DNA from: an uncultured Gammaproteobacteria bacterium
GTDB lineage: Bacteria; Patescibacteriota; Microgenomatia; Levybacterales; UBA12049
Assembly (NCBI GenBank): GCA_964503265.1
Contig: CAZCYO010000002.1
Coordinates: 258,604 to 322,603 of the forward strand
Reading direction: 5' to 3'
Length of the DNA stretch: 64,000 nt
Position 1 is the first letter of the stretch; the number at the start of each line of letters is the position of its first letter. The notes beneath the pieces were generated by a model that had not been told where the DNA came from, did not search any database, and saw only the letters and a program-made list of their open reading frames with translations. A program made the translations under genes and the position numbers. Positions 4,784-39,801 of the stretch are shown here, piece by piece.

Positions 4784-5596
4784 ATGATTACTATGGCAGA
4801 AGTAATCGATCAATCTCCGAAACATTCAGATAACTATATCCGTATTCCGCTCCCTAGTAAAAATACCACAACCCCGGTTCTTATTATCTTACTTGCAATT
4901 GCTGCATTTTATAGTGGCTATGCAACATCAGAAATTAAAAATTTACGTGCAGGAACGACGACTAAACCGACCACTGCTGCTGCAAATATAAGCGGAGCTC
5001 CTGCAGCTGCTCCAACAGAAGACACTAGTCCGAAGAAAGTTGCTCTTAGTGATGCACCAATACTTGGAGATAAAAACGCGCCAGTTACAATTATTGAATT
5101 CTCAGATTACGAGTGTCCATTCTGTAAACAATACTTTACTCAGACATATTCTCAAATTCTTAAAGACTATGTCGATACAGGAAAAGTCAAAATTGCTTTT
5201 AGAAATCTTCCTCTCTCATTCCATCAGAATGCTCACAAAGAAGCCGAAGCTGCTCTTTGTGCAAGAGATCAAGGTGGAGATGAAGCATACTGGAAATTTC
5301 ATGATGAGATGTTCACAAAAACTACTTCTAATGGCCTTGGGTTAGCACTTACTGAACTTCCAAATATCGCAAATAATCTTGGATATAACGGAGATACATT
5401 ACAGAAATGCTTAGATGATGGTAAATACACGAAAACAGTTGACGATGATTTAGCATATTCATCGACAGTCGGTGCAAGTGCAACTCCTACCTTCTTCATT
5501 GGTAAATCAGACAGTAGTGGAACGATCACAGGCACACCACTCATCGGAGCACAGCCTTATTCCACCTTCAAATCCACCATCGACTCCTTGCTATAA
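4784..5596 (+). CDS. DsbA-family thiol:disulfide oxidoreductase, membrane-anchored
   Basis: CPFC thioredoxin active site (EFSDYECPFCKQYF), N-terminal TM, Thr/Ala-rich linker. Confidence 0.8.
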   Translation: MITMAEVIDQSPKHSDNYIRIPLPSKNTTTPVLIILLAIAAFYSGYATSEIKNLRAGTTTKPTTAAANISGAPAAAPTEDTSPKKVALSDAPILGDKNAPVTIIEFSDYECPFCKQYFTQTYSQILKDYVDTGKVKIAFRNLPLSFHQNAHKEAEAALCARDQGGDEAYWKFHDEMFTKTTSNGLGLALTELPNIANNLGYNGDTLQKCLDDGKYTKTVDDDLAYSSTVGASATPTFFIGKSDSSGTITGTPLIGAQPYSTFKSTIDSLL

Positions 5597-7756: not shown

Positions 7757-8873
7757 GAAATCTAAGAAACTACGAAAACGATATGGTCTTATTCGCATTG
7801 GAGTAGTTATGGTTATTTTTTCTCTTCTTTTCTTTTTCATACTAGTTCTCCGCGATAGGAGTAAGCTTACCGATAATAACACATCAATTCTAACTCAACC
7901 AAAAACCATACCTACTCCTCAATCAATTCTTCCTTCACTACCTACGAGCAAAATACTTCAGACGTCGTATCACATTTTTCAAACATTTAACAATTGTGGT
8001 CCTGCATCACTTTCTATGACACTCGCATTTTACGGCATTTCTGTTTCACAAGAAGAATTAGGAAAAGCTATCAGACCATACCAAGTAGTAAATGGCGACA
8101 ACGACGATAAATCAGTAACACTTGATGAATTAGCTGATAAAGCAAAAGAATATGGATTTATCCCATATCACAGACCTAATGGATCGGTAACACTCATGAA
8201 ACAATTTATTGCAAACGATATTCCAGTTATTACGAGAACATGGCTCCATAAAGATGATGATATCGGACATTTCAGGGTAGTAAAAGGATATGATGAAAAT
8301 ACTAAGCAACTTATCCAAGATGACTCATTTCAAAATAAAAACCTCTGGTATTCATATGACGACTTTACTGATATTTGGAAGAAATTTAACAACGAGTATC
8401 TCGTACTTATTCCAAAAAACAAAGAAGAAGTTGCCAAACAAATTTTAGGAGATAATTTTGATGAAAAAAGTTCTTGGGATCATGCTGTCACAACAATTAC
8501 ATCTGAAATAGAAAAAGATCCAAATGATATCTATAATCATTTCAACCTTTCGGTAGCCTACTATCACACAGAGAATTTTAGAGAAGCAATCGTAGAGTAT
8601 GAAAAAGTGGCTGATAAACTTCCCTTTCGAACACTCTGGTATCAAATAGAACCTATCCAAGCATATTACGAAGTCGGGAATTATAAAAAAGTATTTGAGA
8701 TTACGGATACTATTCTAAATAATCAAAACCGAGCATTTTCTGAGCTCTATATAATTCGAGGAGATATTTATAAGAAACAAGGAAATATGACGGCCTCAAA
8801 AGCAGAGTATGAAAAAGCAGTCTATTATAATCAAAACCTCAAAGAAGCTAAGAATGCACTTAACTCACTGTAA
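7755..8873 (+). CDS. Membrane-anchored C39-like cysteine peptidase domain fused to TPR repeats
   Basis: N-terminal TM; NNCGPASLSMTL catalytic-Cys motif typical of Peptidase_C39_2; C-terminal TPR-like repeats (AYYHTENFREAIVEYEKV..., YIIRGDIYKKQGNMTASKAEYEKAVYYNQ). Confidence 0.6.
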   Translation: MKSKKLRKRYGLIRIGVVMVIFSLLFFFILVLRDRSKLTDNNTSILTQPKTIPTPQSILPSLPTSKILQTSYHIFQTFNNCGPASLSMTLAFYGISVSQEELGKAIRPYQVVNGDNDDKSVTLDELADKAKEYGFIPYHRPNGSVTLMKQFIANDIPVITRTWLHKDDDIGHFRVVKGYDENTKQLIQDDSFQNKNLWYSYDDFTDIWKKFNNEYLVLIPKNKEEVAKQILGDNFDEKSSWDHAVTTITSEIEKDPNDIYNHFNLSVAYYHTENFREAIVEYEKVADKLPFRTLWYQIEPIQAYYEVGNYKKVFEITDTILNNQNRAFSELYIIRGDIYKKQGNMTASKAEYEKAVYYNQNLKEAKNALNSL

Positions 8874-8975
8874 ATTCCATTAATTCTCCTTCCGACTGGT
8901 TGCACCAACAACCCCATTTGGCAACACCACAAGAAGGAAAATATAATTAACTGGATTATATGTGCACCGAGTTAG

Positions 8976-10304
8976 TTAGTGCAAGGAGAATTTTTCGTAG
9001 TGAATGCTGGTTTGGTCGACTCCCACAGATAATAATACTTGTTTCAACCCTTCCATCATAGGAACCGGTCCACAAATATAGATTTCTCTTTTTTTAACAT
9101 CTGGAACCAACCGTTTGATTTTTGCTTCATCGATTCGTCCAATTTCACCTTTATATGTAGGTTCTTGTGTCACGATATAGGTCACAGGAAAAGCGAATTG
9201 TTTAGATAGCAGGTCAATTTCTTTTTGTAACGTAAACTCATTTGATAATTTACTACTATAAAGGAGTACGACGTTATTATGTGGTGCGAGTTGTTCGATC
9301 AGAGATCTGATGGGAGTAATCCCTATTCCTCCTGCGATAAAAAGATACATCTTTTTCTCTGTAGGTAAAACAGTAAATGTCCCATACGGTCCATCTATCA
9401 AAACTGGCGTTCCCTTTTTAATACTGCTAATATCACCGGTAAAATCTCCTGAGTTTTTAACAGTAATTCTGAGCATGTTATTTTTCGGAATATATGAAGC
9501 AGAAAATGGATGATGCTGCCACCAGTATGTTTTATTTAAAAATCTAAAGATAAGAAATTGTCCGGGCTTTACCTGAAAGTTCATGAGATTGCGTCCAGTA
9601 ATATATACAGAAATTGCATCGCCTGATTCCTTCTCCATGTGATCGATTCGAAATTGAAAACGCACAAAGTTGAATACAATTCTCCCAAATCGAAATATCA
9701 ATGTATGACCAAAAACAAATGTATAGATAAAGTACCAGTAATAGACAAAGAGTGTATTAACTGCGAAATCGCCGCCATACGTTAGTTGGTGCCCAAAAGC
9801 AAACAGTACAGCGATATATGTGAGCAGGTGAATCCCATACCACCATTCATATTTCAAATGTTTCCGCGCAACGTAAATAGATGAAAAAACGACAAACACA
9901 AAAAGCCCAACAGCAATTTGAGCTTTTAACATATCATCATAGGTAAATGCGAAATCTAGTTCTTGTTTAAGAAGTGAAACCTGAGCTGTCATCGCATATG
10001 AGATCAAAACAAGTGTCGGATGAATGAGAATACATGTTAAGACTGCATAGCCATTCCAATGATGAAATTGTGATAATTTATCGAGTCCAAATACTTTCTC
10101 AATCCATGGAGCTCTTCCCATGAGCATAAACTGTAACAGGACAAATACAACCGCTAAGATACCAAAAAGTCTTCCAAATGCAAGTAATGTTCCATCTACA
10201 CCGTTTCCAATTAATGCATGTGAGCCACTCCACCAAAAAAAGAGAACGACGCAAACATGTACACCAAAAAATCCATAGATTGTAGCCTTTTGCGTAGTCA
10301 TCAT
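8976..10304 (-). CDS. Ferric-reductase-like transmembrane flavocytochrome (FRE/NOX-type: heme TM domain + FAD + NAD(P)H domains)
   Basis: His-rich TM helices, HPFS FAD-binding motif (HPFSASYIP), NAD-binding GGIGITP motif, C-terminal CGP motif. Confidence 0.75.
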   Translation of the reverse strand: MMTTQKATIYGFFGVHVCVVLFFWWSGSHALIGNGVDGTLLAFGRLFGILAVVFVLLQFMLMGRAPWIEKVFGLDKLSQFHHWNGYAVLTCILIHPTLVLISYAMTAQVSLLKQELDFAFTYDDMLKAQIAVGLFVFVVFSSIYVARKHLKYEWWYGIHLLTYIAVLFAFGHQLTYGGDFAVNTLFVYYWYFIYTFVFGHTLIFRFGRIVFNFVRFQFRIDHMEKESGDAISVYITGRNLMNFQVKPGQFLIFRFLNKTYWWQHHPFSASYIPKNNMLRITVKNSGDFTGDISSIKKGTPVLIDGPYGTFTVLPTEKKMYLFIAGGIGITPIRSLIEQLAPHNNVVLLYSSKLSNEFTLQKEIDLLSKQFAFPVTYIVTQEPTYKGEIGRIDEAKIKRLVPDVKKREIYICGPVPMMEGLKQVLLSVGVDQTSIHYEKFSLH

Positions 10305-10828: not shown

Positions 10829-10954
10829 ATAAAAAGTATAGCAAGTTAGGCAGACTAATACTAATCATCATACAAATCTTACACTACTCATAAGTTGTTC
10901 TTGCTTTTAACTAGTATAGTTAGAAGCTCGTGGTAACCCTACCATGAATAGATT

Positions 10955-14025: not shown

Positions 14026-14243
14026 GTTTTTGAGTCCTATAGTTTGCGTTTTACTGTTATTTATTATATAATCCCCTCTAGCTATAGCCTCTAACCTTCT
14101 TCTTTTTTAGACATGCGTTAGCTCTATAGTTTTTTTGCACTTTTACAACACGACGAAATAATTTACGAATGTGTCCTATTAGGAAGCGATTGTTCGCTTT
14201 CTTATTGGGCACATTCAATGAATTGAAAGAACTGGAGGATAGG

Positions 14244-15410
14244 ATGATTCGCACAGTCGGGATTGCTCTACTCGTTGGTGGCTTGCTTAATAGCATTATC
14301 ACACACGGTGAAGGAGTTGCTGCATTTGGAGGACTCATCGTCTTCCTGCCAAAAATTCTTGAAGCGCTAGTTGCCCTTGGTATCGAAACCGAGGCACAAT
14401 TTAGTGGGTTTCACACGGCACGACATCACTGGCGACAGTACTGGAAGAGGCTTGTACTCTTTCTAACAGTCGCCCTCGCCATGAGGGGAGTTGCGATCTA
14501 CATCGCCACTCGTATCATGGACATCCCTAATGGACATTTAATCGCCACTGGCTTAACAGCCACGGACCCAGCTGCTATCGGCATCGCACTTGCGATGGTC
14601 CGAGCTCGGCGGTTAGAGGGACTTTTCTGGCTTCTGACAGTCGAATCGCTTCTCAACGATGCGATCGGCTTGGTTGCATTCTCAACAGCTCGCGGAGAAG
14701 ATATCTGGTCAATCGTTGCAACGATTTTCCTAACGATTCTCGCAGCTATCCTACTTGCGATCGCAGACGCAGGCGTCCGGTGGATGATCCGTCTTCGGTT
14801 CTTCCGCAATCACCGCTATGAAGCTCGGGCAGAAGTCCTAGCTGCCTTTTGTGTCTATGTAGCGTTCGTGTTACTAGGCGTTAAGGCAGGACTATCACTC
14901 ATTGGCTTAACAGCTGTGGGTGCAATTCTGGGAGATATCATTCTCCCCCAGATTCCTCACGAACGTGATCACCACGTCGAACTTGAGCGCACGCACTTAC
15001 ACGAACTGTGGAGTATGATTGGCTTAGGGACGGTACTCGGAGTTGTAACTCTGATTATGCCGTTTCGAGCTATCTTCGCATCAGTGTATGTACTGTATGC
15101 AGCGGCAGGTATTCTGGCAGCGATCATAATCGCTCGGACATTGCACGATATCGCCTTCGCGGTGATCGCAGAGTTCCGAGCGACAAGAGAAGTGTCAGAG
15201 TTAAAGCCGGCAACAGTCTCAATTTTGGCCGCAACGTGCTTACTGGGTGTGCCGTCGATCGTAGCTACCGAGATGTTTCACGAAGGACGTAGCGAGGCGA
15301 TCATCGTTTATGCGGCAGTACTTCTATCGTGGTCCACAGTCGTGCCGACAGTACTACTGATTCGGCGTGTGGAACGAAGCTTGAGCCGACCTAAGCGAAC
15401 CAATCCATAA
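14244..15410 (+). CDS. CPA1-type Na+(K+)/H+ antiporter (NhaP-like), located in a high-GC patch
   Basis: TDP motif (TATDPAAIG) and ND motif (ESLLNDAIGLVAF), multiple TM helices. GC about 52% versus about 35% in flanks. The ORF tracker start at 14169 is probably too early; MIRTVG... is chosen. Confidence 0.65.
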   Translation: MIRTVGIALLVGGLLNSIITHGEGVAAFGGLIVFLPKILEALVALGIETEAQFSGFHTARHHWRQYWKRLVLFLTVALAMRGVAIYIATRIMDIPNGHLIATGLTATDPAAIGIALAMVRARRLEGLFWLLTVESLLNDAIGLVAFSTARGEDIWSIVATIFLTILAAILLAIADAGVRWMIRLRFFRNHRYEARAEVLAAFCVYVAFVLLGVKAGLSLIGLTAVGAILGDIILPQIPHERDHHVELERTHLHELWSMIGLGTVLGVVTLIMPFRAIFASVYVLYAAAGILAAIIIARTLHDIAFAVIAEFRATREVSELKPATVSILAATCLLGVPSIVATEMFHEGRSEAIIVYAAVLLSWSTVVPTVLLIRRVERSLSRPKRTNP

Positions 15411-24072: not shown

Positions 24073-24192
24073 ACACTCACACTATAGTTCTGTTACAGAT
24101 AAATTTCAAGTCGATATTCCGGAGTCACAGTATAACGGTGATCTGAGCATGCTTTAATCTCGATTACTATCCTAATAACAACGAATTAAATG

Positions 24193-24277
24193 CGGAGAGG
24201 GCGAGATTCGGACTCGCGAAACCTTGCGGTTCGGCGGTTTAGTAAACCGCTGCACTCGACCACTATGCGACCTCTCC
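24193..24277 (-). tRNA. tRNA-Ser-like (type II, long variable arm, G73), anticodon loop UUACUAA (anticodon ACU), atypical C55 in T-loop
   Basis: Minus strand GGAGAGG-UC-GCA-UAGUGGUCGAG-UGC-A-GCGGU-UUACUAA-ACCGC-CGAACCGCAAGGUUUC-GCGAG-UCCGAAU-CUCGC-CCUCUCC-G folds as a cloverleaf closely parallel to E. coli tRNA-Ser. A34 and C55 are unusual, so it may be a pseudo-tRNA. Confidence 0.55.
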
Positions 24278-25855: not shown

Positions 25856-26674
25856 CTACGGCATCACCCTTCGTACATGGCTCAAAGATCCAAACATGCC
25901 AGTGCGAACAAGGTGTGCCGGAATAACGAAGTCACCGTTCATAAGTTTGCCTGTAACTTCCATGCCGAGCACTTGCGTAGGCAAGAAAGCCCGCAGTTGA
26001 GGACTCAGCGAGTCCTCATACCAGACTGGACAGCCAGCGTCTTCAGGAAGCTGGAACGAGCTGAAGAAGATCCAGTGATCCACGTCAACGAGTCCCCTCT
26101 GCGGGATGCCACCAGTATGAGCATCGATCCCCGGCAGCCGGAAGACGTTAGGTTCGGATGTGCGATACCACACCATGATCGGTGTAGCTTTCATCGCCTC
26201 GTAGTTGTCAAAGCAACACAGTGCGAACGAAAACCCCGGATAGCTCTCCGCGTAGAACGAGACGAGCTCTGGGCTAATCTTCGGCCGCTGGTTCTCAGGG
26301 ACCTGCAGAAGCGCTGCCGGGATGAGAGTCGGATCAGAGGTCAGAAGCACGGTATAGATACCATGCCTGAAGACCTCAACAGATTTCGCCCCACTCGAAC
26401 GAGTCGAGAACCCAAGTGACCTCAAAGGAGGAGAGATGGCATACCGCATATCACGCATGATACGTGGACAACTTTCCGTCGGGATGAAGTTCGCCTGCGT
26501 CACCGGCTCACCACCCGGGATATGCAGAAGCATACAGTTGGGACCGTAGGGAGAGAGATTCTTGGCAGAGTTCTCATACACCATAACACGGATCTCTCCG
26601 AGTGTGGGATGATTGACTTCACCGAGAAATACGGATGTTCCGCTCAATTGTGCTGGAGCACTCGTAACACACAT
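25856..26674 (-). CDS. High-GC hypothetical protein (272 aa)
   Basis: Longest ORF spanning an about 0.85 kb patch of about 55% GC. No recognisable domain. The overlapping plus-strand ORF 25877-26419 is Arg-rich and looks antisense. Confidence 0.35.
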   Translation of the reverse strand: MCVTSAPAQLSGTSVFLGEVNHPTLGEIRVMVYENSAKNLSPYGPNCMLLHIPGGEPVTQANFIPTESCPRIMRDMRYAISPPLRSLGFSTRSSGAKSVEVFRHGIYTVLLTSDPTLIPAALLQVPENQRPKISPELVSFYAESYPGFSFALCCFDNYEAMKATPIMVWYRTSEPNVFRLPGIDAHTGGIPQRGLVDVDHWIFFSSFQLPEDAGCPVWYEDSLSPQLRAFLPTQVLGMEVTGKLMNGDFVIPAHLVRTGMFGSLSHVRRVMP

Positions 26675-30482: not shown

Positions 30483-31929
30483 CGCTTATGACATCTTCTG
30501 CTCTCATAATTTCAGTACCATGAATTGTATCTTTAATTTCATATCCAAATTTTCTGATCTTATTTCGATAGTGATCAGCTGCTGAGAAATGCTTTGCTTT
30601 GCGTAGTCGTTCTCGCTCTGCGACTAATTCATGAACTTCTGCTGGAATTTTTTCAGCCGGTCGATGTCGCTGTTCTTCATAATACGCTTTTAAATTAAGT
30701 CCAAGTACTTCGTCCATCATAAAAAGTGTTGCTAGTTTTCGTCCATTATCTTCATGTGAATTCATCATTTCCCACACTACAGCCAGTGCTTGTGCAGTAT
30801 TCAAGTCATCTGTTAAAGAATCGACAAATTTTTTATAAAAGAACTCACTTTTACCTTGTGCATCTTTTAATTTCAGCATTTCTTTGCGTAAATTAGTGAG
30901 AGCATTCTGTGCTGCATCTAGCCCACCAAATGTAAAGTTCATTTCTTGTCGGTAATGTGTTTGGAGATAGAGATATCGAAGCGCTAATGGGTCATACCCT
31001 TCTTTAATGAGATCATAAACCCGGTACACATTATCTTTTGATTTACTCATTTTCTCACCATTAACGAGTAAAAATGTCACGTGCATCCAGTAGTTAACAA
31101 ATTTCTTTCCCGTAACTGCTTCTGATTGCGCGATTTCATTTGGATGGTGTGTTTCTTTTAAGTCCATACCACCAGTATGAATATCAAATGTTTCACCTAA
31201 ATATTTCATACTCATCGCCGAACATTCGATATGCCATCCTGGAAATCCGACACCCCATGGACTCTTCCACTCCATTTGGCGACGTGTAACGGAGCCATCC
31301 TCAGCATTAGCGTAGGATGACGCATTTTTTTTCTCTGAAAATTTCCATAAGGCAAAATCTCGTGGATTTCTTTTTTCCGGATTAATTTCTACTCGTGCGC
31401 CCTCTTTAATTTGATCAAGCGATGATAATTCTCCATATGTCGCAAATCGAGATGTGTCAAAATAGATACCATCTGATGTTTCGTACGTAAATCCTTTTTG
31501 TTCAAGTTTTTTGACAAGTTCAATTTGTTCTGCGATATGATCTGTCGCTTTTGCGAATTTTTCAGGCTTAGTTAAATTAAGTTTTTCAAAATCTGATATA
31601 AATGCATCGGTATAAAACTCAGCCACTTCCCATGCGGTTCTTCCTTCTTTTGTAGCCGTTTTTTCCATGCGATCCTCGCCAGTATCAGCATCTCCGAGAT
31701 TGTCCCCTGTTAAATGTCCGACATCAGTAATATTCATGAGGTAGTCGACGTTATATCCCTGGATTTTTAGTGTTCGAAGTAAGAAATCTACAGCTGTATA
31801 TGTGCGAAAATTACCAATAGTAGCAAAACTATAAACGGTCGGTCCACACGTATACATGCGAACTGTATAAGGATCGATTGAATTAAAATCTTCAATTTTT
31901 TTAGTAAGAGAATTAAATAAACGTAACAT
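30475..31929 (-). CDS. cysS: Cysteine--tRNA ligase
   Basis: HIGH-region (CGPTVYSFATIGNFRT), KMSKS (GEKMSKSKDN), Zn-binding Cys residues. Confidence 0.95.
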   Translation of the reverse strand: MLRLFNSLTKKIEDFNSIDPYTVRMYTCGPTVYSFATIGNFRTYTAVDFLLRTLKIQGYNVDYLMNITDVGHLTGDNLGDADTGEDRMEKTATKEGRTAWEVAEFYTDAFISDFEKLNLTKPEKFAKATDHIAEQIELVKKLEQKGFTYETSDGIYFDTSRFATYGELSSLDQIKEGARVEINPEKRNPRDFALWKFSEKKNASSYANAEDGSVTRRQMEWKSPWGVGFPGWHIECSAMSMKYLGETFDIHTGGMDLKETHHPNEIAQSEAVTGKKFVNYWMHVTFLLVNGEKMSKSKDNVYRVYDLIKEGYDPLALRYLYLQTHYRQEMNFTFGGLDAAQNALTNLRKEMLKLKDAQGKSEFFYKKFVDSLTDDLNTAQALAVVWEMMNSHEDNGRKLATLFMMDEVLGLNLKAYYEEQRHRPAEKIPAEVHELVAERERLRKAKHFSAADHYRNKIRKFGYEIKDTIHGTEIMRAEDVISDE

Positions 31930-32119
31930 ATGAGTGGATTATAGCTTACTCTGCTGAAAATTCAAAATATTTGCAGGAAATACGAAATAAGAATATCGAA
32001 ATTCGAAACAATTCGAACTCCTTGGACTTCGTCAGGAAAAATTGGTGATCTTGTTATAACGAAGTAAAGAATGTCAAAGCATTTCGCATTTCGTGCTTCG
32101 ATATTCTTATTTTCACTAC

Positions 32120-32704
32120 TTAGCCAGATGCTCCTGGGCTTCCTTCTGTTTTAGTCTGTGCACGTTGCAGCGCAAAGTCTGGTTTTTTCTTTTGTTTTTC
32201 AAATTCCTCAAACTTTTTCTCCTGTTCTTCCCGTTCATTTTTATCTACTACAGATTCTTCTCCCTGGTGCTGACTACGATTAAATGTGGGGTTAAAATAA
32301 CTATCCATGTGTTGTTGTTTCATCAGTGCATCAAGTTGGTGACGAGTTGAAGCGAGTTTATGCTGATCTTCCTGCATAACTAGACTTGGTTGTGGAGACA
32401 TCTGTTGAGGAGGGGCACTAGCATGAGCGGCATTGGGCTGTGTTTGTTGGTTATGTTCCGCTCCATAGAGTTCACGAACAAACTCGTCATTGTCAGTTGG
32501 AGGTGGAGTAAATGCGGCACTGTCATGTGATACCATCGAGATTGCAGCGTCGGTAACTTTCCCAAAACTTGCCCCAGTCAACTGTGCCGCAGCAGTTTGA
32601 GCAGTAACCTTAACTCCTTGAGCAGCAGTGTCTCCTACTTTTTTAACGACACTAACTCCCTGCTCAAGTAACGATTCCCCAGTAAACGACCCAAGTGGAT
32701 TCAT
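32120..32704 (-). CDS. Hypothetical low-complexity (Gln/Ala/Pro-rich) protein
   Basis: ORF only; charged KE-rich C-terminus. Confidence 0.35.
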   Translation of the reverse strand: MNPLGSFTGESLLEQGVSVVKKVGDTAAQGVKVTAQTAAAQLTGASFGKVTDAAISMVSHDSAAFTPPPTDNDEFVRELYGAEHNQQTQPNAAHASAPPQQMSPQPSLVMQEDQHKLASTRHQLDALMKQQHMDSYFNPTFNRSQHQGEESVVDKNEREEQEKKFEEFEKQKKKPDFALQRAQTKTEGSPGASG

Positions 32705-32723
32705 AGATTAATAATACTACAAA

Positions 32724-33181
32724 GTATCACGGGTATCACGGGTATCACAAGTATCACTGGCTTAAAGGTGATATTGTAATACTATATGGATAAATCCACA
32801 AAGAGCTATCATAAATTGATTCTCTGGCATAAAATGAAAGACTTGATCACTCTTACATATACCTTAACAGATAAGCTGCCTAAATCAGAAATATTTGGAT
32901 TAACATCTCAAATGAGGAGAGCGATGGTTTCTGTCCTGTCAAACTTTGTGGAAGGGTATCTTAAAAAAAGTACTAAAGAAAAGCTGCATTTTATGGAAAT
33001 TGCTGAGACATCATTGCTAGAATTAGAGGCACAGAGCGAAATTTGCCAAATTCTAGAATACTGGGGAGAGGAAGAATATCAATTGTTCGATAAAAAACGA
33101 TCTGAAGTTGGATATTTTTTACACCAATATATTAGTAAAATCTCCTCGTGATACTTGTGGTACCCATGCTACCCGTGGTAC
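32724..33181. mobile_element. Inverted-repeat-flanked cassette carrying four-helix-bundle (IVS-protein) gene, copy 1
   Basis: Left arm gtatcacgggtatcacgggtatcacaagtatcactgg (contains a 9-bp tandem repeated 4 times). Right arm is its about 85% reverse complement (cgtgatacttgtggtacccatgctacccgtggtac). Confidence 0.55.
32786..33151 (+). CDS. Four-helix-bundle protein (23S rRNA intervening-sequence protein family, PF05635/TIGR02436)
   Basis: Characteristic pattern ...SQMRRAMVSVLSNFVEGY...EIAETSLLELEAQSEIC... Paralogs at 46039-46407 and 57283-57558. Confidence 0.75.
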   Translation: MDKSTKSYHKLILWHKMKDLITLTYTLTDKLPKSEIFGLTSQMRRAMVSVLSNFVEGYLKKSTKEKLHFMEIAETSLLELEAQSEICQILEYWGEEEYQLFDKKRSEVGYFLHQYISKISS

Positions 33182-33185
33182 TTTC

Positions 33186-33794
33186 CTAATAGTTGCTTCT
33201 TCCCTCCATCGCTCGATCAAGGGTCGTGCTGTCTGCATATTCCAGGTCTGCTCCTATTGGAAGTCCCCGTCCAATGCGAGTAATTTTGAGATCAGGATGT
33301 TGTAGTTTAAGCTGTTTCGCAATATACATCGCCGTTCCCTCCCCTTCCATCGTCGGATTTGTCGCTAAAATTACTTCCATAATTCTTGATTCATTATTCT
33401 TGATTCTATTAAAAAGTTGTGCGATATAAATTTCATCTGGTCCGATGTTATTAAGTGGGTCAATTTTTCCGTGAAGAACGTGATATACGCCGTGGTATTT
33501 TCCACTTTTTTCAAGTGCCAGCACGTCAAGTGCCTGCTCGACGACACAGACGACTTCTTGATCTCGTTTCGTGTCACTACAAATACTACACGGATCAATT
33601 TCATCAATTGAAAGACAGATCGAACAAAGTTTCGTGCCTTTTTTAAGTTGTTCAAAAGAAGCTGCCATACGATCGAGTTCGCTCTGTGGGACATGGAGTA
33701 AATAAAATGTTAACCGCTGAGCACTTTTCGGACCGATACCAGGAAGTTTTTCAAACGTTTCAATGACATCTTGGATAGCTTTAGGAATTCTCAT
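33186..33794 (-). CDS. recR: Recombination protein RecR
   Basis: HhH (LPGIGPKSAQRL), C4 zinc finger (CSICLSI...CSICSD), Toprim domain. Confidence 0.95.
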   Translation of the reverse strand: MRIPKAIQDVIETFEKLPGIGPKSAQRLTFYLLHVPQSELDRMAASFEQLKKGTKLCSICLSIDEIDPCSICSDTKRDQEVVCVVEQALDVLALEKSGKYHGVYHVLHGKIDPLNNIGPDEIYIAQLFNRIKNNESRIMEVILATNPTMEGEGTAMYIAKQLKLQHPDLKITRIGRGLPIGADLEYADSTTLDRAMEGRSNY

Positions 33795-33804
33795 AATAAA
33801 AATT

Positions 33805-33884
33805 AGTCATCCTGGAAGGAGGCGAAGACGACTGATAAGATCTCATAAAAGTGGGATTCTATCGCTCTGCTCCAGAATGACAAT
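33805..33884. repeat. MITE-like element family A (inverted orientation)
   Basis: gtcatcctggaaggaggcg...gggattctatcgctctgctccagaatgaca. The second half is the reverse complement of the 5622-5653 unit. Confidence 0.55.
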
Positions 33885-33939
33885 AATCAAGTTATTGTAA
33901 CTCTTTTATGCTAAGTGGTGCAAATATAATTATATGATT

Positions 33940-34060
33940 ACTTTCTTATTTGTAATATGTGATCTGTGTAAAATTGGTATGTATTTGTAGTATTTGAGGT
34001 TGGTAGTATTGGATATTTGTAATATTGGTACGTATTTAATATGGTATGTTTGTGAGAGAG
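33940..34060. repeat. Iteron-like array of degenerate direct repeats (core TTGGTAYGTATTTG, 4 copies) at the low-GC border of the high-GC island
   Basis: ttggtatgtatttgtagtatttgaggttggtagtattggatatttgtaatattggtacgtatttaatatggtatgtttgtg. A 28-nt stretch (atttgtagtatttga--ttggtagtatt) recurs at 1171-1200. Confidence 0.5.
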
Positions 34061-34178
34061 GGATACACTTTTTCGTTTACATTCTTTTTTATCCTTATCG
34101 CAATTGATAAGGTAAAGCAGAATCTACACGAGTAGTGTTTGAGCCGGAAGCGCACTGTGCGCTCCCGGCCCGGGTGGT

Positions 34179-34955
34179 CTAGCTTTCCAGGGACGATCCC
34201 CAGGAAGTGACCGTTTGCTCCATCTCGGCCGCGCGTGTCGCGAACTGCGTCACTGCAACGAGATTGAGAACCTGCTTGCCAGGCTTCTTGCCATGCAGCT
34301 CTTCGCCCGCAGATGCGAGCTTCAGCCGAGCGACGGCTTCCTTCAGCTGCTTGTAGAAGTGTGGCAAATCCTTGCCAAGGGTGGTTTGCACCGATCCCTG
34401 GCCGCCACGGGCAATTTTGACTTCCTGCCACCCATCCGGGTAGACAGCCGTCAACGCGTCAAGCAGGTTGGCCTCGGGCTGATGCCCATTGCCGAACTGC
34501 TTACTCAGGACGAGATTAGCCAGCCAGTAGACACCGTATGTGTCACGTGGTGGCTGCTTCGCCTTGCGCTTCGCTTTGCCTTTCCCGTTAGACGGGACGG
34601 CAACCGGAGCCGGTGGGGGGAGCACAGCGTTGGGCTGACTCGGTGTAGTCGGAACAGCGTCCTGCTGTGCCTGACGACGAGTAGTCCGAGGCTTGGTTGC
34701 CACAACCGCCGTCTCGACCTTGTTGCGAGCCTTCTTAGGCTCGGTAGAAGGCGCAAGCGGATGTAGTTCCGCGAGCTGCGCACGCAGGAAGCGGCGCAGT
34801 GGTTCGGGGACTTCCATGTTGTTCATCGTTTTCCGGACGAAGTCCGGATCATCGCGCACCAACTTGGAAAATCCGTGAACCAGACGAAGGAGCTTCGATG
34901 AGCTCCCCACCAGTTGGCCAAAAACCTTGTCGGTCTGCTCAGAGATTGTAGCCAT
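34179..34955 (-). CDS. Island gene 3: hypothetical basic protein (258 aa) with Pro-rich linker and KGKAKRKAK patch
   Basis: High-GC ORF. Start at ATG 34953-34955 preceded by GAGGGGAG RBS. No recognisable domain. GC hairpin (34147-34171) after the stop. Confidence 0.5.
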   Translation of the reverse strand: MATISEQTDKVFGQLVGSSSKLLRLVHGFSKLVRDDPDFVRKTMNNMEVPEPLRRFLRAQLAELHPLAPSTEPKKARNKVETAVVATKPRTTRRQAQQDAVPTTPSQPNAVLPPPAPVAVPSNGKGKAKRKAKQPPRDTYGVYWLANLVLSKQFGNGHQPEANLLDALTAVYPDGWQEVKIARGGQGSVQTTLGKDLPHFYKQLKEAVARLKLASAGEELHGKKPGKQVLNLVAVTQFATRAAEMEQTVTSWGSSLES

Positions 34956-35053
34956 TGCTTCTCCCCTCTGACAGTAGTCCACAATTCCCAAGTCCAACTT
35001 GAACTCAGGGTGGTTGTCGACATGCTCGTATACAGAGCATCTAGTCCTCCTTA

Positions 35054-37048
35054 CTATACTCGCTTCTTGGCGAGTGATGTTCGGCGCTTACGATTCTTCT
35101 TCTTCTGAAGGTAGTTCGCGTGCAGCCGATCAAAGAGTAGTTCTTCTTGTTCCTCACGGTAGTCTTCCGACGCATGTGAGAAACAGAAGCGAGTAACAGC
35201 CCGCGCAACGATATGCGCGATATTTGCTTCGAAACGTGCTTCGTCCCCTGCCGCATACGATTCTGCAATCGTTGGAAACAGCGTATTGACGACGAGACGT
35301 CCGATGTGAAGCCGCTCTTCATACGGCCGATCCGGCCGCCGATAAAGCGGCGATGGTGTGATGTCCAGGCGTGTTAGCCTGTGACTCTCGTGTGGTGGTC
35401 GGCCTGTCAAGATACGAAACTCGATCTGCTGAGTGGGTTGCCCCTCTCGCAGTTGGAATTCTTCCTCGAGAATCGTTTCTTTCTTGAACTGAACTTTCGG
35501 AGTTATCATCACCTTTAGCGACACGCCGTGAGGCGCTTGCTGCCGGGTGAAACTTACCCGTCCACTCAGACCAGTGTTTCGACTGACCAGCACTTGATGA
35601 ATATCCATGAGATCCACATTGACATCTACCATGCCTTGGCCGTATTCGTTAACGACCTTGACTGAGATTGCCTGTGGATCACGAGGCGAACGAGATTGAT
35701 CCGTCGATCGCTTGGTGGATGTTTGCCGAGACGGCCGCGCAGTCGTGAGATCATGCTCATTATAAGCAGGAATCTCACTAATCGCTTCCATTGCCGCACT
35801 CGACATGTCAGTCATCGTAGCACGAAGGCTCGCATTTTCCAGACGCTCTTCAGCATCTTGGATAGCCTGCACGACGAGAGGTGTGAGCTTATCGTTAATC
35901 ACCTTTACCCAGTCGAGCATGTACTTGGTTGGCCTCAGCGCAGTTTTCGGTGCATTCCAGATAGTATTATCCGAGACGCCGACGAACGATGGGAAGACTA
36001 TGTATCCGCGGATCTTTCCAAGATTCCACGGCTCCTTATTCAACCCAGTGATCGTTGTGATCTCGAACTTGTCGGAACCCTTGAAACGCAGTTGGGGAGC
36101 CAGATTGACTCCCTTTACGTCGTAGAAGAGTTCGACAGAAATACTATCTGGTTCTGTATCGTATTCACCCCAGATCAACTCACCCCGGTAAAGCGGGATC
36201 CCTAGGTTGGCCGGAGCCTGAACAGGGATCTCGATCTGCTTTGCAGTAGACCGTTTCGCTTCGGGGGAGATCCGATCGAAGATGCTTATCTTGAATCCGA
36301 TCCGAAGATCTTCAGCGAACATGCTAGTGAGCATAGACGCCAGAGCCTTCGGACGTAGCTGGTCTTTCTCGCCTGGATCCAGATCGGAGACAGTGACACA
36401 CGTGCCATGCTCCATAACCTTTCCCCAGGCATCGTGGAGCGATTCTCCACGACCCGCGATGTCGTACTCGTAAGTTAGATCACCACGCGAGATGCTAGTG
36501 CGCGTAGGTGGCAGTAGAACGATAGTCGGATTTTCCGACTCAGTCATCGTTTCATCTTGCCATGCTTGGCGCATGCGATCCAGGTGAGCTCGCGTCAAAA
36601 GCGTCAGGCGATCAGCGTACTGACAGTATGCCAGAAAACCGATACCTTTCACTCCACGCTGGCTAGAAGACTTGCCACTGATCCCAATTCGTCGCATAAC
36701 CCATTCGATGGAGTAGCGACTAATCGAGTCCAGAGGCACAGCCTTTTCCAGGCTTGTTTCGTAGTCAGCGTCCAGATTACCTTGCGCGATGCTCTCTGCG
36801 AACTGTGTCAACCGTTGCCGGTCGACCTCGAGCATCTCAGGTACCATACCGTGACCGTTGCCGATCACGATCAATTTATTCTCCTCGATAACGATATGAA
36901 GCCAGGTTGCCCCGGCATCACGCTCGTTTTCGATGAGTTGTGCGAACGCTTGGACAGTCGATGCATAGATAGTGGCCAAGTGCAGGATTGCCTGATTGGC
37001 AAAGACCCGCATTACGCCACTCTTTGAGTGCTGTGGCTGCGAAGTCAT
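35054..37048 (-). CDS. Island gene 2: MutL/MORC-like GHKL (Bergerat-fold) ATPase with about 470-aa C-terminal extension and basic tail
   Basis: N-box LIENERDAGAT (compare MutL ELVENSLDAGAT), G1 region IVIGNGHGM (D-to-G variant of DNGxG), G2 lid SQRGVKGIGF. C-terminal KKKNRKRRTSLAKKRV. AAGGAG RBS 10 nt upstream. Stop of the upstream gene abuts the start. Confidence 0.6.
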   Translation of the reverse strand: MTSQPQHSKSGVMRVFANQAILHLATIYASTVQAFAQLIENERDAGATWLHIVIEENKLIVIGNGHGMVPEMLEVDRQRLTQFAESIAQGNLDADYETSLEKAVPLDSISRYSIEWVMRRIGISGKSSSQRGVKGIGFLAYCQYADRLTLLTRAHLDRMRQAWQDETMTESENPTIVLLPPTRTSISRGDLTYEYDIAGRGESLHDAWGKVMEHGTCVTVSDLDPGEKDQLRPKALASMLTSMFAEDLRIGFKISIFDRISPEAKRSTAKQIEIPVQAPANLGIPLYRGELIWGEYDTEPDSISVELFYDVKGVNLAPQLRFKGSDKFEITTITGLNKEPWNLGKIRGYIVFPSFVGVSDNTIWNAPKTALRPTKYMLDWVKVINDKLTPLVVQAIQDAEERLENASLRATMTDMSSAAMEAISEIPAYNEHDLTTARPSRQTSTKRSTDQSRSPRDPQAISVKVVNEYGQGMVDVNVDLMDIHQVLVSRNTGLSGRVSFTRQQAPHGVSLKVMITPKVQFKKETILEEEFQLREGQPTQQIEFRILTGRPPHESHRLTRLDITPSPLYRRPDRPYEERLHIGRLVVNTLFPTIAESYAAGDEARFEANIAHIVARAVTRFCFSHASEDYREEQEELLFDRLHANYLQKKKNRKRRTSLAKKRV

Positions 37049-37049
37049 G

Positions 37050-38162
37050 CTAGATAGCTCCTTTCATCCTTATGATGTTCTCCCTGTCTCCCGGGCTTTT
37101 GGTCAACGTATCGACGAGATCGAACAGCTCGCTCAGAGCATGTCCATACTTGATGACCAACGTATTTCGTCCTTCCGCATTCCCATCGAAATAGGGTTGC
37201 AGCAGGATAGTCAGTTGGCCAATCAGAGTCCCGATGTCGATAGGCATCTCAGTAGTCACTGTTTCCTGTCGCTCAGGTGTAACCCTAAGCAGCAGGACGA
37301 ACAGCTGATGGAGTTGATCGAAGTTCGGGCTCAGCGATTGCTGATCCTCCATCTCGATCTTCTTTTTCAACTGATCGATGACGAAGCTGAGTGCTTCCTC
37401 GAGAGTCGGTTCAGCGGGTTGCAGCTTTGTAGCTGCATTCCTCTGTCCCTCATCTACTTTGAAAGAAAGCGCCCCAACCAGATCGGTGAGGTGTCGGACT
37501 TGATTCTGTGTCTCACTCAGTTGTGCGTTGAGTTCTGCCACAATGCCATTACTGGCTTGCGTCAGTGACGCTAACAGCGGAGCAGCAACGGTATTGGCAA
37601 CTTGCGAAGCCATCGATGCTGCCCAGTTATCCATCCATCCATTGATGTAATCTCCGGGTGTCGGGAATGGAGACGCGGGAATCCGTCCAGCAGTAGCCGG
37701 TGAAGGCTGTGACTGAATGGGCGGCGTTGGCTGTGTTGGAGCCGTAGAAAGACGATGGTCTGGCCGACTTGCCGGCTCTTGCGGAACCTGTTGCGGTTGT
37801 GCCGTAGCATGGCCATTTCGCGTAAAGATCTCCGGTAGTGGTTGCTGCCTTGTGAGCCACTGGGTGTACTTCTGCGGAGTCCATGCACGGATAATTTCCT
37901 TGCGAACTCCACGAGTCTCAGTGATCCGTGGCGGAATCTTGGTAGGATCTGCAGACACGATGCCGATACGAAAAAGTTTCGCATAGGCTTCGACATCAGA
38001 CGAGATCGCTTCGGCGATCGAGATCCCATTGAAAGATTTACCGATTCCTAGCAACTCGCCAATCTCAGACTTGAACTTCAAGCCGAGCTGCTGGCGTTTT
38101 GCTTGGATCTCATCCCGAATTGGGTGAGTCCACCACTCGTAGGGTGACTTGGCGCGCACCAT
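37050..38162 (-). CDS. Island gene 1: hypothetical protein (370 aa), ordered N-terminal domain, Pro/Gln-rich linker, alpha-helical C-terminal domain
   Basis: Start MVRAKSPYEWW preceded by a perfect AGGAGG RBS 7 nt upstream. No recognisable domain. Stop TAG overlaps the RBS region of the GHKL gene (operon). Confidence 0.5.
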   Translation of the reverse strand: MVRAKSPYEWWTHPIRDEIQAKRQQLGLKFKSEIGELLGIGKSFNGISIAEAISSDVEAYAKLFRIGIVSADPTKIPPRITETRGVRKEIIRAWTPQKYTQWLTRQQPLPEIFTRNGHATAQPQQVPQEPASRPDHRLSTAPTQPTPPIQSQPSPATAGRIPASPFPTPGDYINGWMDNWAASMASQVANTVAAPLLASLTQASNGIVAELNAQLSETQNQVRHLTDLVGALSFKVDEGQRNAATKLQPAEPTLEEALSFVIDQLKKKIEMEDQQSLSPNFDQLHQLFVLLLRVTPERQETVTTEMPIDIGTLIGQLTILLQPYFDGNAEGRNTLVIKYGHALSELFDLVDTLTKSPGDRENIIRMKGAI

Positions 38163-38399
38163 GATGTACCTCCTGATATATATGAAACGTTCAGTAACCG
38201 CGGTACCTAAGTACCTCCTTTTTCCCCTTACGGGGAACTTGTAGTAACTCCCAAAGAATGGGAGTTTTCCCTCTCTCACTTGTCAATGATCCTAACCCCC
38301 TGACAGTACTTTTCAGTACGCCAAACGTTATTTGTCTAGCTAAGAGGGAAAGTGCGGAAATTATAGCAGATTTTTAACTTATAGTAAACAAATGCGAGG

Positions 38400-39296
38400 C
38401 TATTTAAGTTCTTGAGCGATAAGTGAGGAAAGAGTGAGTATTTCTAATTTTTCAAATCGCTTTTCTTCAGGGACATAGACGCTGTCTGTAACATAGACTT
38501 TTTTAACTAGAGATTCTTGGAGAATTTTCGGTGCTTCGGCCGAAAATACTGGATGTGTAGCAAATACGTATATCTCCTCTGCCCCATTTTTATGCAGTAA
38601 TTCTGCAGCTTTTGCGATAGTTCCACCACTTGAAATCATATCATCGACGATAAGCGCACGTTTTTGTATCGTTCCTTCAAAACTTGCAGCCTCAACAAAT
38701 CCCGTCGCGAGATCACGTTTTTTTGTAATAGTTACATATGGCATGTCCCCAAGTAAATGTGAGAGTATTTCAATTCTTCGAATACCACCGACATCTGGGG
38801 TGATAAGTACTGTATCTTTCTGAGTCCAACCTTCTTTTCTAATCGTCTGGGCAAAAAGAGAAAGTGCAGATAAATGAAGTACCGGGATATGGAAAAGTTC
38901 GGGGATACGAATCGTATGTAAATCACATGCAATAATACACTCAATTCCAAGTGACTCGAGCGTGGTAATGATTACTTGCATCGAGACTGCTTCTCCATCT
39001 CGGAATACATGATCTTGTCGTTGGTAGCCGACATATGGCATCACGACTTTTACACTTCTGGCGCCACTTCGTTTTGCAGCATCAATAAGAAAAAATAATT
39101 CGAGATAATTCTGATCGACAGGCGTAGATGTCGATTGCACGATTATTACGTCTTCATCTAACACTGGTTCTTGGATTTGTATGCGTCGTTCCCCATCTGG
39201 GAAAATAAATATTTCACGAGAAGAAAGAGTCGTACTCAGTGCTGAAGCAATTTTTTTAGCAAGCGGTTGATTTGAAGAGCCACTAAAGATTTTCAC
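38400..39296 (-). CDS. prs: Ribose-phosphate pyrophosphokinase
   Basis: PRPP synthetase motifs (VVMPYVGYQRQD, DLHTIRIPELF, PRPP-binding ALIVDDMISSGGT). Confidence 0.95.
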   Translation of the reverse strand: MKIFSGSSNQPLAKKIASALSTTLSSREIFIFPDGERRIQIQEPVLDEDVIIVQSTSTPVDQNYLELFFLIDAAKRSGARSVKVVMPYVGYQRQDHVFRDGEAVSMQVIITTLESLGIECIIACDLHTIRIPELFHIPVLHLSALSLFAQTIRKEGWTQKDTVLITPDVGGIRRIEILSHLLGDMPYVTITKKRDLATGFVEAASFEGTIQKRALIVDDMISSGGTIAKAAELLHKNGAEEIYVFATHPVFSAEAPKILQESLVKKVYVTDSVYVPEEKRFEKLEILTLSSLIAQELK

Positions 39297-39390
39297 TACG
39301 ATAAATTTACACTATTCCCAGTGTTTTGTACATCATAATTGTTGAGTTTCTTCACTAGTGAAACTCTGAATCTTTGCATTTTGAAACTTT

Positions 39391-39681
39391 CTACTTTCCC
39401 CCAAGTAAGCCACCGAGGCCTCCCATTCCACCACTCATTGATTGCAACTTTTTCGCCGCAACTTCTTGTGATTTCTTGATCGCTTCATTGATAGCATCCT
39501 TGATATCATTATCTGATCGACCTTGTGCTGAAATAGATTTGATTTTCTGATCTCCAGTAATAACTACTTTAATACCATACTTATCAACTTCTATTTCTTC
39601 AGCTGCCAATTGTCGCTGAATCATCAGCGCCTGATCACGCATTTTTTTAAGCTCACCTAATTGTCCAAATGGATTATTCAT
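39391..39681 (-). CDS. ybaB: Nucleoid-associated protein YbaB/EbfC
   Basis: 96 aa, MNNPFGQLGELKKM...GGMGGLGGLLG signature. Confidence 0.85.
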   Translation of the reverse strand: MNNPFGQLGELKKMRDQALMIQRQLAAEEIEVDKYGIKVVITGDQKIKSISAQGRSDNDIKDAINEAIKKSQEVAAKKLQSMSGGMGGLGGLLGGK

Positions 39682-39704
39682 TTTATTTCACCACCTTTCA
39701 CATC

Positions 39705-39794
39705 TGTCATTGCGAGGAACGAAGTCGAAGATCCTCGAACGGGGCAATCTCTTATTATTTTCTATAAGATCGCCGCGCTTCGCTCGCGATGACA
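39705..39794. repeat. MITE-like element family C (TGTCATTGCGAGG...CTCGCGATGACA termini)
   Basis: tgtcattgcgaggaacgaagtcgaagatcctcgaacgg...cgcgcttcgctcgcgatgaca. Half-copies at about 7128-7145, 19214-19240, 12470-12500. Confidence 0.55.
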
Positions 39795-39801
39795 AAGATT
39801 T

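Follow-up and report, generated by a model that had tools for sequence, protein, structure and literature searches.

The window analyzed here is a stretch of 64,000 nucleotides (nt) from contig CAZCYO010000002.1 of an uncultured member of the Patescibacteriota, and this analysis concerns an island of ∼4.2 kb located in it between recR and prs. The island represents one copy of an undescribed cassette of two to three genes, which measures ∼2.8–4.9 kb and was acquired horizontally. With a probability of about one half, this cassette is a small, self-contained unit that is bounded by repeats and mobile or once mobile. The function of the cassette is unproven; it is rated here as a GHKL-based conflict or mobile module.

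The GC (guanine plus cytosine) content of the island (∼34050–38280) is 0.50–0.62, compared with ∼0.35–0.40 in its surroundings, and outside of it no stretch of the window keeps a GC content >0.5 beyond ∼1 kb. At third codon positions (GC3), the island genes reach 0.55, 0.56, and 0.67, and recR, prs, dnaX, and cysS 0.27–0.33, which indicates that the difference is mainly mutational or historical and not a matter of amino acid composition. A sequence-only reading of the window had already pointed to a GC-rich island of this size between the two genes, and both GC and GC3 confirmed it. The features of the island and its flanks are the following (amino acids, aa; strand in parentheses):

33186–33794: recR, the flank on the gene 3 side
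34052–34063 (+): terminal inverted-repeat arm at the downstream end, beside gene 3, GTGAGAGAGGGA, 116 nt past the gene 3 stop codon
34064–34178 (−): 3′ untranslated region; immediately past the stop codon of gene 3 it forms a GC-rich hairpin of 14 bp, then a second, extended one
34179–34955 (−): gene 3 (family C), 258 aa, isoelectric point (pI) 10.0
35054–37048 (−): gene 2 (family B), 664 aa
37050–38162 (−): gene 1 (family A), 370 aa from ATG
38163–38267 (−): gene 1 5′ leader, with three short hairpins (centroid, z-score −2.1) and an AGGAGG ribosome-binding site
38268–38279 (−): terminal inverted-repeat arm at the upstream end, beside gene 1, GTGAGAGAGGGA, forming a perfect 12-nt inverted repeat with 34052–34063
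38280–38290 (−): upstream-end motif, ATCATTGACAA, abutting the upstream arm and containing a TTGACA hexamer
38400–39296: prs, the flank on the gene 1 side, with ybaB, a NUDIX gene, and dnaX farther out

From arm to arm, the element spans 34052–38279 (4,228 bp), and with the upstream motif it reaches 38290. It is occupied by three minus-strand open reading frames (ORFs), in the order gene 1, 2, 3 from 38162 down to 34179, and their sizes (370, 664, and 258 aa) and strand agree with those read before. A compact operon with good ribosome-binding sites had also been proposed; such sites precede all three genes (AGGAGG for gene 1, AAGGAG for gene 2, and GGGGAG for gene 3), but the genes nearly abut only between the gene 1 stop and the gene 2 start (1 nt), whereas 98 nt separate genes 2 and 3.

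Terminal repeats and their conservation at other loci

Both arms coincide exactly with the two GC boundaries of the island, and across the 64 kb, allowing ≤1 mismatch, GTGAGAGAGGGA has only these two matches. A 12-mer pair within 6.5 kb occurs at about chance level, and the repeat scan listed four perfect 12-nt pairs; the position of the repeat was thus suggestive by itself, and it was the comparison with other loci that made it convincing. Contigs of the family were obtained by exact look-up (eleven members) and by a genome scan with a seven-sequence alignment (three members). The comparison covered the window and 13 other loci, and at the latter the following elements were framed by arms:

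L003: arm AACGAGAGAGGGC at 227–239 and 3833–3845, ∼3.6 kb
L005 (A and B only): arm AAGTGAGAGAGAAT at 6449–6462 and 9264–9277, ∼2.8 kb
L026: arm AAGTGAGAGAGGG at 4811–4823 and 8754–8766, ∼3.95 kb
L030 (B identity 21%): arm AATTGAGAGAG at 6006–6016 and 10926–10936, ∼4.9 kb

The arms of the window and of these elements (11–14 nt) all have a GAGAGAG core. In L006, whose upstream end lies off the contig, arm GTGAGAGAGGAA was found at the one readable end, 108 nt past gene C. An exact inverted repeat of at least 11 nt joins the 300-nt flanks in five of the nine loci with both flanks, as compared with 2.2% of shuffled flanks. Private substitutions are common to both arms of an element (L003, CGAGAGAGGGC, variant CG...GGGC; L005, GTGAGAGAGAAT, variant ...GAAT; L030, TTGAGAGAG, variant TT...), which indicates that the two arms of an element evolve together. 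Elements framed by arms persist down to a B-protein identity of 21% (L030), and the downstream arm lies 88–130 nt past the last stop codon in L003, L005, L006, and L026, and ∼70 nt past it in L030.

The upstream end is further marked by a motif just outside the arm, with the family consensus GCAC(A/C)TTGA(C/A)AA (noted GCACNTTGACAA), so that the upstream end of the family comprises 25 nt, GCACNTTGACAA followed by NTGAGAGAG. The motif immediately precedes the arm in L003, L005, L026, and L030, and stands there armless in L027 and L031; upstream of it, no sequence conservation was observed among the loci. A sigma-70 promoter made up of the TTGACA and the arm was considered; no consistent −10 hexamer was found at 16–18 nt in the five elements. 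L030 has, some 24 nt upstream of its arm, another, incomplete GAGAG-like motif, AACGAGAGG, and the number of DNA-binding modules in A may be linked to the architecture of the element ends.

Homologues of gene 1 abut or overlap the GHKL gene (gene 2) wherever the upstream flank could be read (12 of 13 other loci), lying directly upstream of it in L003, L004, L005, L008, L010, L026, L027, L029, and L030. Homologues of gene 3 follow the GHKL gene in 10 loci (L003, L006, L008, L009, L010, L025, L026, L027, L029, and L030) and are absent from L004, L005, and L031, where host genes follow directly. The co-occurrence of gene 2 homologues with those of genes 1 and 3, left for checking by the sequence-only reading, was therefore found for A at all readable loci and for C at 10 of 13, which makes A plus B the core of the cassette and C a frequent third member. 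The three full-length relatives from the genome scan came from metagenome-assembled genomes (MAGs) of Candidatus Wildermuthbacteria and of the Patescibacteria group, and from a 2.5-kb contig binned as Pseudomonadota; wherever a host flank of the cassette could be read, it resembled a genome of Patescibacteria (Candidate Phyla Radiation, CPR). Scanning metagenomes with the same seven-sequence alignment returned unrelated GHKL N-termini only.

The insertion sites vary and are mostly next to housekeeping genes, namely between prs and recR and upstream of secE-nusG, rplU, rpoB, and purD; neighboring host genes include secE-nusG-rplK, rplU, rpoB, purD, and that for GAPDH. At most loci, GC3 of the element is 0.45–0.67 compared with 0.27–0.39 for the host, L010 and L026 being nearly at the host value. 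This pattern, including the ameliorated L010 and L026, points to repeated acquisition from a GC-richer pool at different times. According to gene and Pfam tables (ORF lists for L008–L010), no helicase, nuclease, methylase, or integrase is associated with the cassette; the DEAD-box helicase gene seen in L030 is outside the element, ∼2 kb away from the upstream arm. The sole conflict-type neighbor is a Fic/MazE pair in L029, and several neighboring genes have no Pfam family.

Some loci showed peculiarities of their own. L029 carries an extra 255-aa coiled-coil gene directly after the module (8155–8922) and a 1-kb segment of 66–67% GC (9001–10000) with a 318-aa opposite-strand protein without Pfam family; module, extra gene, and GC-rich segment may form a larger composite island. 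In L008 (Wildermuthbacteria MAG), a sequence that by eye reads like the C-terminal end of an IS30-family transposase lies just upstream of the module (1–300), and recR is located 2.3 kb downstream; the window also has recR on that side, and this proximity is probably a coincidence. The next downstream host gene is co-oriented with the module at every readable locus except L031.

The sequence-only reading had described the borders as free of integrase, transposase, or tRNA genes, with an iteron-like repeat array at one edge. No match to any of these was indeed found, but the conserved inverted repeats that frame the island are a border signature it had missed. The array (33947–34037) turned out to be a weak AT-rich tandem repeat (65% matches, Tandem Repeats Finder score 42–60) which lies outside the arm, toward recR and in a region with predicted promoter-like sites for that gene, and which has no counterpart in the right flanks inspected at other loci; it is probably host intergenic sequence and not an iteron-like part of the element. 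Integration linked to a tRNA was rejected because no tRNA adjoins an element at any locus, the single tRNA call of the window being at 24192. On the other side, a good sigma-70-like promoter (38360–38388, minus strand; TTTACT, 17 nt, TGnTATAAT) was noted in the low-GC sequence that separates the prs stop codon from the upstream arm; it may once have been the promoter of recR and may now drive the island.

The transcribed end also has a strong structure. The 3′ region folds with −53.6 kcal/mol (z-score −8.5; none of 200 shuffles was as stable), and strong hairpins also follow the last gene in L003, L005, L006, L029, and L031. Whether the repeats act at the RNA level, by pairing of 5′ and 3′ ends, as a processing stem, or as intron-like ends, was considered as well and ranked below a role at the DNA level, which is preferred because of the conserved TTGACA motif upstream of the arm and because there is no ribozyme-sized non-coding RNA. 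Rfam gave no match at gathering score in the island or the whole window, which disfavors the presence of known riboswitches or of group I/II introns in the untranslated regions.

Proteins encoded by the cassette

None of the three proteins had been assigned to a nameable family before, and this held: A and C match no curated family, and B matches the generic HATPase_c_3 model alone. Genes 1 and 2 encode near-neutral proteins, gene 3 a basic one.

Gene 2 is the part of the cassette with recognizable relatives. Its product was matched by Pfam HATPase_c_3 (28.9 bits; cut-off 25), and nothing significant was obtained for it in sequence searches of PADLOC, PHROGs, NCBIfam, and PDB. It comprises a GHKL domain with S5 transducer (∼15–370), a long helix (375–425), a disordered basic linker (430–458), and a C-terminal half consisting of a CnaB/transthyretin-like β-sandwich (460–530), an α/β domain (541–625), and a terminal helix with a polybasic tail that is conserved across the family. 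The long extension with polybasic tail predicted from the sequence was therefore seen, resolved into these domains. The NCBI call of gene 2 begins at Met13 (652 aa; window 37013–37048 left out), and the Logan and ENA calls comprise 664 aa; the longer form is favored by the AAGGAG before the upstream ATG and by N-terminal extensions in relatives.

An exhaustive HMMER search of 1.84 billion representatives yielded 116 B clusters, 66 of them below 1e-30, mostly of 620–700 aa, aligned over nearly their full length and 21–34% identical. When gene 2 or the alignments of B and of A were used in word-index protein searches, hardly anything but the query was returned, and the family surfaced by HMMER only. 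Judged by these sequence comparisons, family B is real, rare, and very divergent.

Residues 1–68 of the 72-member B profile matched MutL N-terminal domains (2e-8), Grp94/Hsp90, and MORC3/4, and positions 451–513 matched an SdrD B-type β-sandwich. When folds were compared, gene 2 scored highest with MORC3 (18.4; 285 residues aligned), followed by GRP94 (16.4), MORC2 (16.3), TRAP1 (16.1), MutL (15.9; 268 residues of the N-terminal domain), and SMCHD1 (15.8); ATPase modules of type II topoisomerases scored 12–13.4, and CnaB/transthyretin-like domains 8–9. The MutL/MORC-like GHKL identity proposed earlier was thus correct at the level of the fold, and similarity to the ATPase fold is present in profile searches, too. 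The PDB and profile matches to MutL cover residues 20–68 only, with MutL Glu29 aligned to position 37, and the NCBIfam MutL model scored 11.3 bits (cut-off 840) over the N-terminal part only. Unlike MutL, B has no C-terminal dimerization/endonuclease domain, and its gene resides in a foreign cassette and not in a repair context. A Topo VI-like pair (GHKL B subunit with Spo11-like A subunit) was rejected, as neither a Toprim nor a winged-helix catalytic region is present in gene 1 and Top6B came out lower than MORC and MutL. Of the MORC S5 signature GhXhhpXXRhl, the window segment G-F-K-I-S-I-F-D-R-I-S was seen by eye to match the G and the R as well as roughly half of the class positions, and in most B members the spacing from G to R is one residue longer.

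The Bergerat motifs claimed for gene 2 were borne out in part. Conserved are Asn41 (the Mg2+ ligand of the Bergerat fold) and Asp44 of motif I, the ATP-lid glycines G132, G135, and G137 (at least 65 of 72 members), G215-T216 (at least 71 of 72), and the transducer Lys368 (71 of 72). The window copy, however, is without two of the canonical residues. At the site of the catalytic Glu, four residues ahead of the motif I Asn, it has Gln37 (family: Glu in 40 of 72, Gln in 28), and motif II reads G63-N-G-H-G-M, with Gly in place of the adenine-contacting Asp (family: Asp in 60 of 72, Gly in 11). Both canonical residues are present in 35 of 72 members, Gln plus Asp in 21, and Q37 plus G63 in six, including the window copy; in other words, one or both of the key catalytic residues are lost in roughly half of the family. 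The consequences of losing such residues are established from mutants of Hsp90, MutL, and GyrB. In light of these, ATP hydrolysis by window B is unlikely, and its ATP binding may be poor. The C-terminal domains of B contain no invariant acidic or His residues.

The product of gene 1 consists of an N-terminal core of ∼105 aa, a Pro/Gln-rich linker, a helical insert of ∼110 aa, and a conserved C-terminal helical segment. This agrees with the layout read from the sequence, apart from the insert, which is specific to the window copy; the middle part of the family is variable. The core follows the pattern W..L..AL..W...NGY....LA.EL.I....W..IS.G..IV.D.E.YA.LF..TGL.EADPRTIPPR...RAWTEEE. A proteins found each other with BLAST E-values of 1e-8 to 1e-47, and the distant ones joined by hhalign (L029 with 99.4% and L030 with 96.8% probability). 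By eye, the core signature occurs in tandem, twice in L029 (4028–5353) and three times in L030 (6097–8004), and the window core aligns to the third L030 copy (hhalign probability 96.8%). Residues 27–59 of the L030 protein, by eye within the first core copy, matched Pfam HTH_3 with 25.5 bits (cut-off 23). As this copy passes the cut-off, the A core looks like a divergent XRE-type helix-turn-helix (HTH) with an extension.

In family C, the N-terminal region of most homologues is helical or coiled-coil; it is followed by a linker rich in Pro and Lys/Arg and by a C-terminal domain that is small and conserved. The basic character and the Pro-rich linker ascribed to gene 3 were hence both seen, but the family has no match in Pfam or PDB and no detectable relatives.

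Explanations of the cassette

As no proteins other than A and B accompany the repeats in every case, these two are the simplest candidates for binding the arms. A would dock on both arms, and its conserved C-terminal helices would recruit B, which, dimerizing via its GHKL N-terminal domains like MORC and MutL, would bridge the two ends so that the DNA forms a loop; C would assist DNA binding. The loop could represent a paired-end complex for moving the cassette, or else an autoregulated, insulated operon, the cargo of which (B with or without C) would act in some conflict. As its catalytic Glu and adenine-contacting Asp are lost, window B is probably a nucleotide-independent or hydrolysis-dead scaffold.

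For such an operon, the immunity region of phage lambda offers an analogy. There, cI-rexA-rexB lies between OL and OR, ∼2.4 kb apart and looped by the XRE-type CI, with exclusion genes as cargo. The cassette would likewise be an operon opened by an XRE-family HTH protein and flanked by its sites. It is an analogy only: the lambda operators are triple pseudo-palindromes, in contrast to single inverted 13-mers, neither sequence nor fold pointed to a relationship, and the proposed looping agent here is a GHKL protein.

MORC-type GHKL ATPases are DNA clamps in eukaryotic silencing, and those of prokaryotes are, to our knowledge, known only from predicted restriction-linked operons. The cassette would add a new context, in which a partner related to HTH proteins and a basic one are combined with dedicated cis repeats in one compact unit. 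With three proteins and a 13-bp site, the system is small enough to ask how a GHKL clamp loads at specific DNA sites, and the natural series of B copies without catalytic residues may reveal which functions need ATP. It would also constitute a mobile or once-mobile type of element in Patescibacteria, whose reduced genomes are thought to be poor in such elements. Full-text literature searches returned nothing relevant on Patescibacteria and GHKL, or on CPR terminal inverted repeats and mobile elements.

Several results weigh against a repeat-bounded mobile cassette. L004, L008, and L029, with both flanks readable, have no arms (ordinary sigma-70-like promoters occupy the place of the upstream arm in L008 and L029), and in L010, the arms seen at the equivalent places are decayed. 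No direct repeat indicative of a target-site duplication surrounds any of the five arm-framed elements. An empty site was not found via exact RecR look-up, the sole other contig ending inside the AT-rich array, nor was a second or near-identical copy of the cassette. The nearest relative of B among representatives of ∼15 billion proteins is 34% identical. None of A, B, and C matches a transposase, recombinase, nuclease, or HUH enzyme in Pfam, NCBIfam, PHROGs, or PDB. As to the proposed mechanism, gene 1 of the window has no Pfam, PDB, or NCBIfam match, HTH included, its AlphaFold2 model (two-sequence alignment; pLDDT 43) was unusable and not used, and window B is devoid of two key ATPase residues (Q37, G63).

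The sequence-only reading had favored a defense module. In this case, the island would be a chromosomal anti-phage or anti-plasmid system of the MORC/paraMORC kind, in which B senses or clamps DNA, A and C are accessory, and the repeats are operators for autoregulation, which we consider unlikely. The MORC-like GHKL and S5 fold of B, the patchy, rare distribution and foreign composition of the cassette, and the TTGACA hexamer followed by the upstream arm, a possible operator site, are in line with it. So is the assignment of prokaryotic MORC/paraMORC GHKL ATPases to conflict systems of the restriction-modification type, based on gene neighborhoods with an SF2 (superfamily 2) helicase, a restriction-fold or HNH nuclease, and a DNA methylase (Iyer, Abhiman and Aravind 2008; PMC2292703). 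It is exactly this neighborhood that is missing from all 14 cassettes, where the partners instead are an HTH-related protein and a basic, mostly coiled-coil protein. Further differences from MORC/paraMORC are the S5 motif GhXhhpXXRhl, matched only in part by B, the C-terminal half of B (β-sandwich, α/β domain, polybasic tail), not described for them, the inverted repeats carried by the cassette itself, and the fact that about half of the B family, the window copy included, lacks the catalytic Glu and/or the motif II Asp, that is, has degenerate ATPase residues. In PADLOC-DB 2.0, genes 1 and 3 had no match, and gene 2 and 14 relatives gave weak matches confined to the GHKL N-terminus (models REase_II, MzaB, and TmtA; best E 9e-4, MzaB, one member), which do not amount to a known defense system. 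No effector domain was found, the neighbors are mostly housekeeping genes with no evident defense cluster at any locus, and an operator would leave the matched inverted copy 70–130 nt past the last gene unexplained. On these grounds, the earlier claim of a defense module was not upheld.

An autonomous transposon of a new type, with A binding the ends, B performing synapsis, catalysis residing in an unrecognized fold, and C sometimes included, appears distinctly unlikely. As in insertion sequences and transposons, short terminal inverted repeats with co-varying arms are shared among the elements, the sites are varied, the composition is foreign, and there is no other conserved gene between the repeats. 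In IS21 (IstA/IstB), Tn7 (TnsB/TnsC), and Mu (A/B), too, a DNA-binding protein and an ATPase are encoded between the repeats, the ATPase helpers IstB, TnsC, and MuB being paired with a transposase. However, all helper ATPases of transposons known to us are AAA+ proteins and none is GHKL, and the cassette has no match to a DDE, serine, tyrosine, or HUH enzyme, nor is any catalytic motif conserved in A, B, or C. Target-site duplications, multiple copies, and signs of recent spread (closest relative 34% identical) were not seen, and the upstream end carries an extra, asymmetric motif. Half of the elements are without repeats and yet have intact genes, which suggests that the genes are useful without mobility. 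A bolder version, to which we give marginally less credit still, holds that the cassettes are an unrecognized class of autonomous mobile element in the CPR, with XRE-like end recognition, MORC-like GHKL synapsis, and breakage and joining carried out either by a host enzyme that has been hijacked or by an unrecognized fold within one of the three proteins. If the cassette did move itself, this would be a new kind of transposition machinery, based on GHKL instead of a known transposase with AAA+ helper.

It is highly improbable that the island is the remnant of an integrated small plasmid or virus, the repeats being its former genome termini. Its size (2.8–4.9 kb), terminal inverted repeats, foreign GC, and basic tails or linkers would fit, but a replication, capsid, or integrase gene is missing, and no free form was found, host genes being present on every contig long enough to show a flank. 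In PHROGs, no annotated family was matched significantly, and all that remained at E <0.001 were short hits to two families whose function is unknown (best E 1.5e-4); 2.9 million viral contigs contained no relative by protein or end motif; tblastn found nothing in 50,697 phage records or in the plasmid collection; and structural matches in BFVD were generic GHKL proteins only (TM ≤0.38). No ordinary phage genes were recognized in the island by these searches.

An assembly chimera or contamination, by which a GC-rich fragment was joined into a low-GC contig, is suggested by the abrupt GC step at both borders and has a negligible probability: a second assembler reproduced both junctions with 100% identity (Logan contig L001, SRR12487046, 8,618 bp, window 31180–39797), the GC step coincides with a matched inverted repeat, and the same architecture in low-GC flanks recurs in many independent samples. 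L001 and the assembly of the window were possibly built from the same reads, but ENA contig L002 (ERZ4216102), from a different assembly, is 99.8% identical within the island. A single-assembler chimera as its source is very unlikely, and a chimera cannot account for the island because the same GC-rich module with border repeats is present in other metagenomes. The foreign composition suspected before is thus real, as judged by GC3 and by these contigs, and not the artifact of one assembler.

L002 differs from the window in that codon 340 of gene 1 is changed from GGA to TGA (window 37145), which cuts short the conserved C-terminal segment. Its remaining five differences are grouped in the spacer between genes 2 and 3 and in codon 16 of gene 3 (window 34909–35008), and none is in gene 2. 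Coverage of L002 is 2.4×, so its differences could be sequencing errors.

Other observations in the window

Two further GC-rich islands, each with a single gene, lie in the window: one at 14169–15410 (plus strand), encoding an apparently multi-pass membrane protein of 413 aa, and one at 25856–26674 (minus strand), encoding a 272-aa orphan. Both have a GC content of 0.50–0.57 compared with ∼0.37, no Pfam match, no likeness to A, B, or C, and no GAGAGAG repeat; their presence suggests that the host repeatedly takes up genes from GC-richer donors.

Beside recR, a 121-aa protein (32786–33151, plus strand) matched 23S_rRNA_IVP (E 2.6e-27), and bAvd-like below the cut-off; 23S_rRNA_IVP/bAvd-like proteins are four-helix bundles of the kind accompanying diversity-generating retroelements. 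The tRNA call mentioned above (24192–24277, minus strand) is an ARAGORN tRNA-Ser with the unusual anticodon "act"; Rfam found no tRNA in the 64 kb, and the call may be false or the gene atypical. A Pro/Gln-rich orphan of 194 aa (32120–32704, minus strand; local GC 0.45, no Pfam family) is kept with the same neighbors in a second sample (L028).

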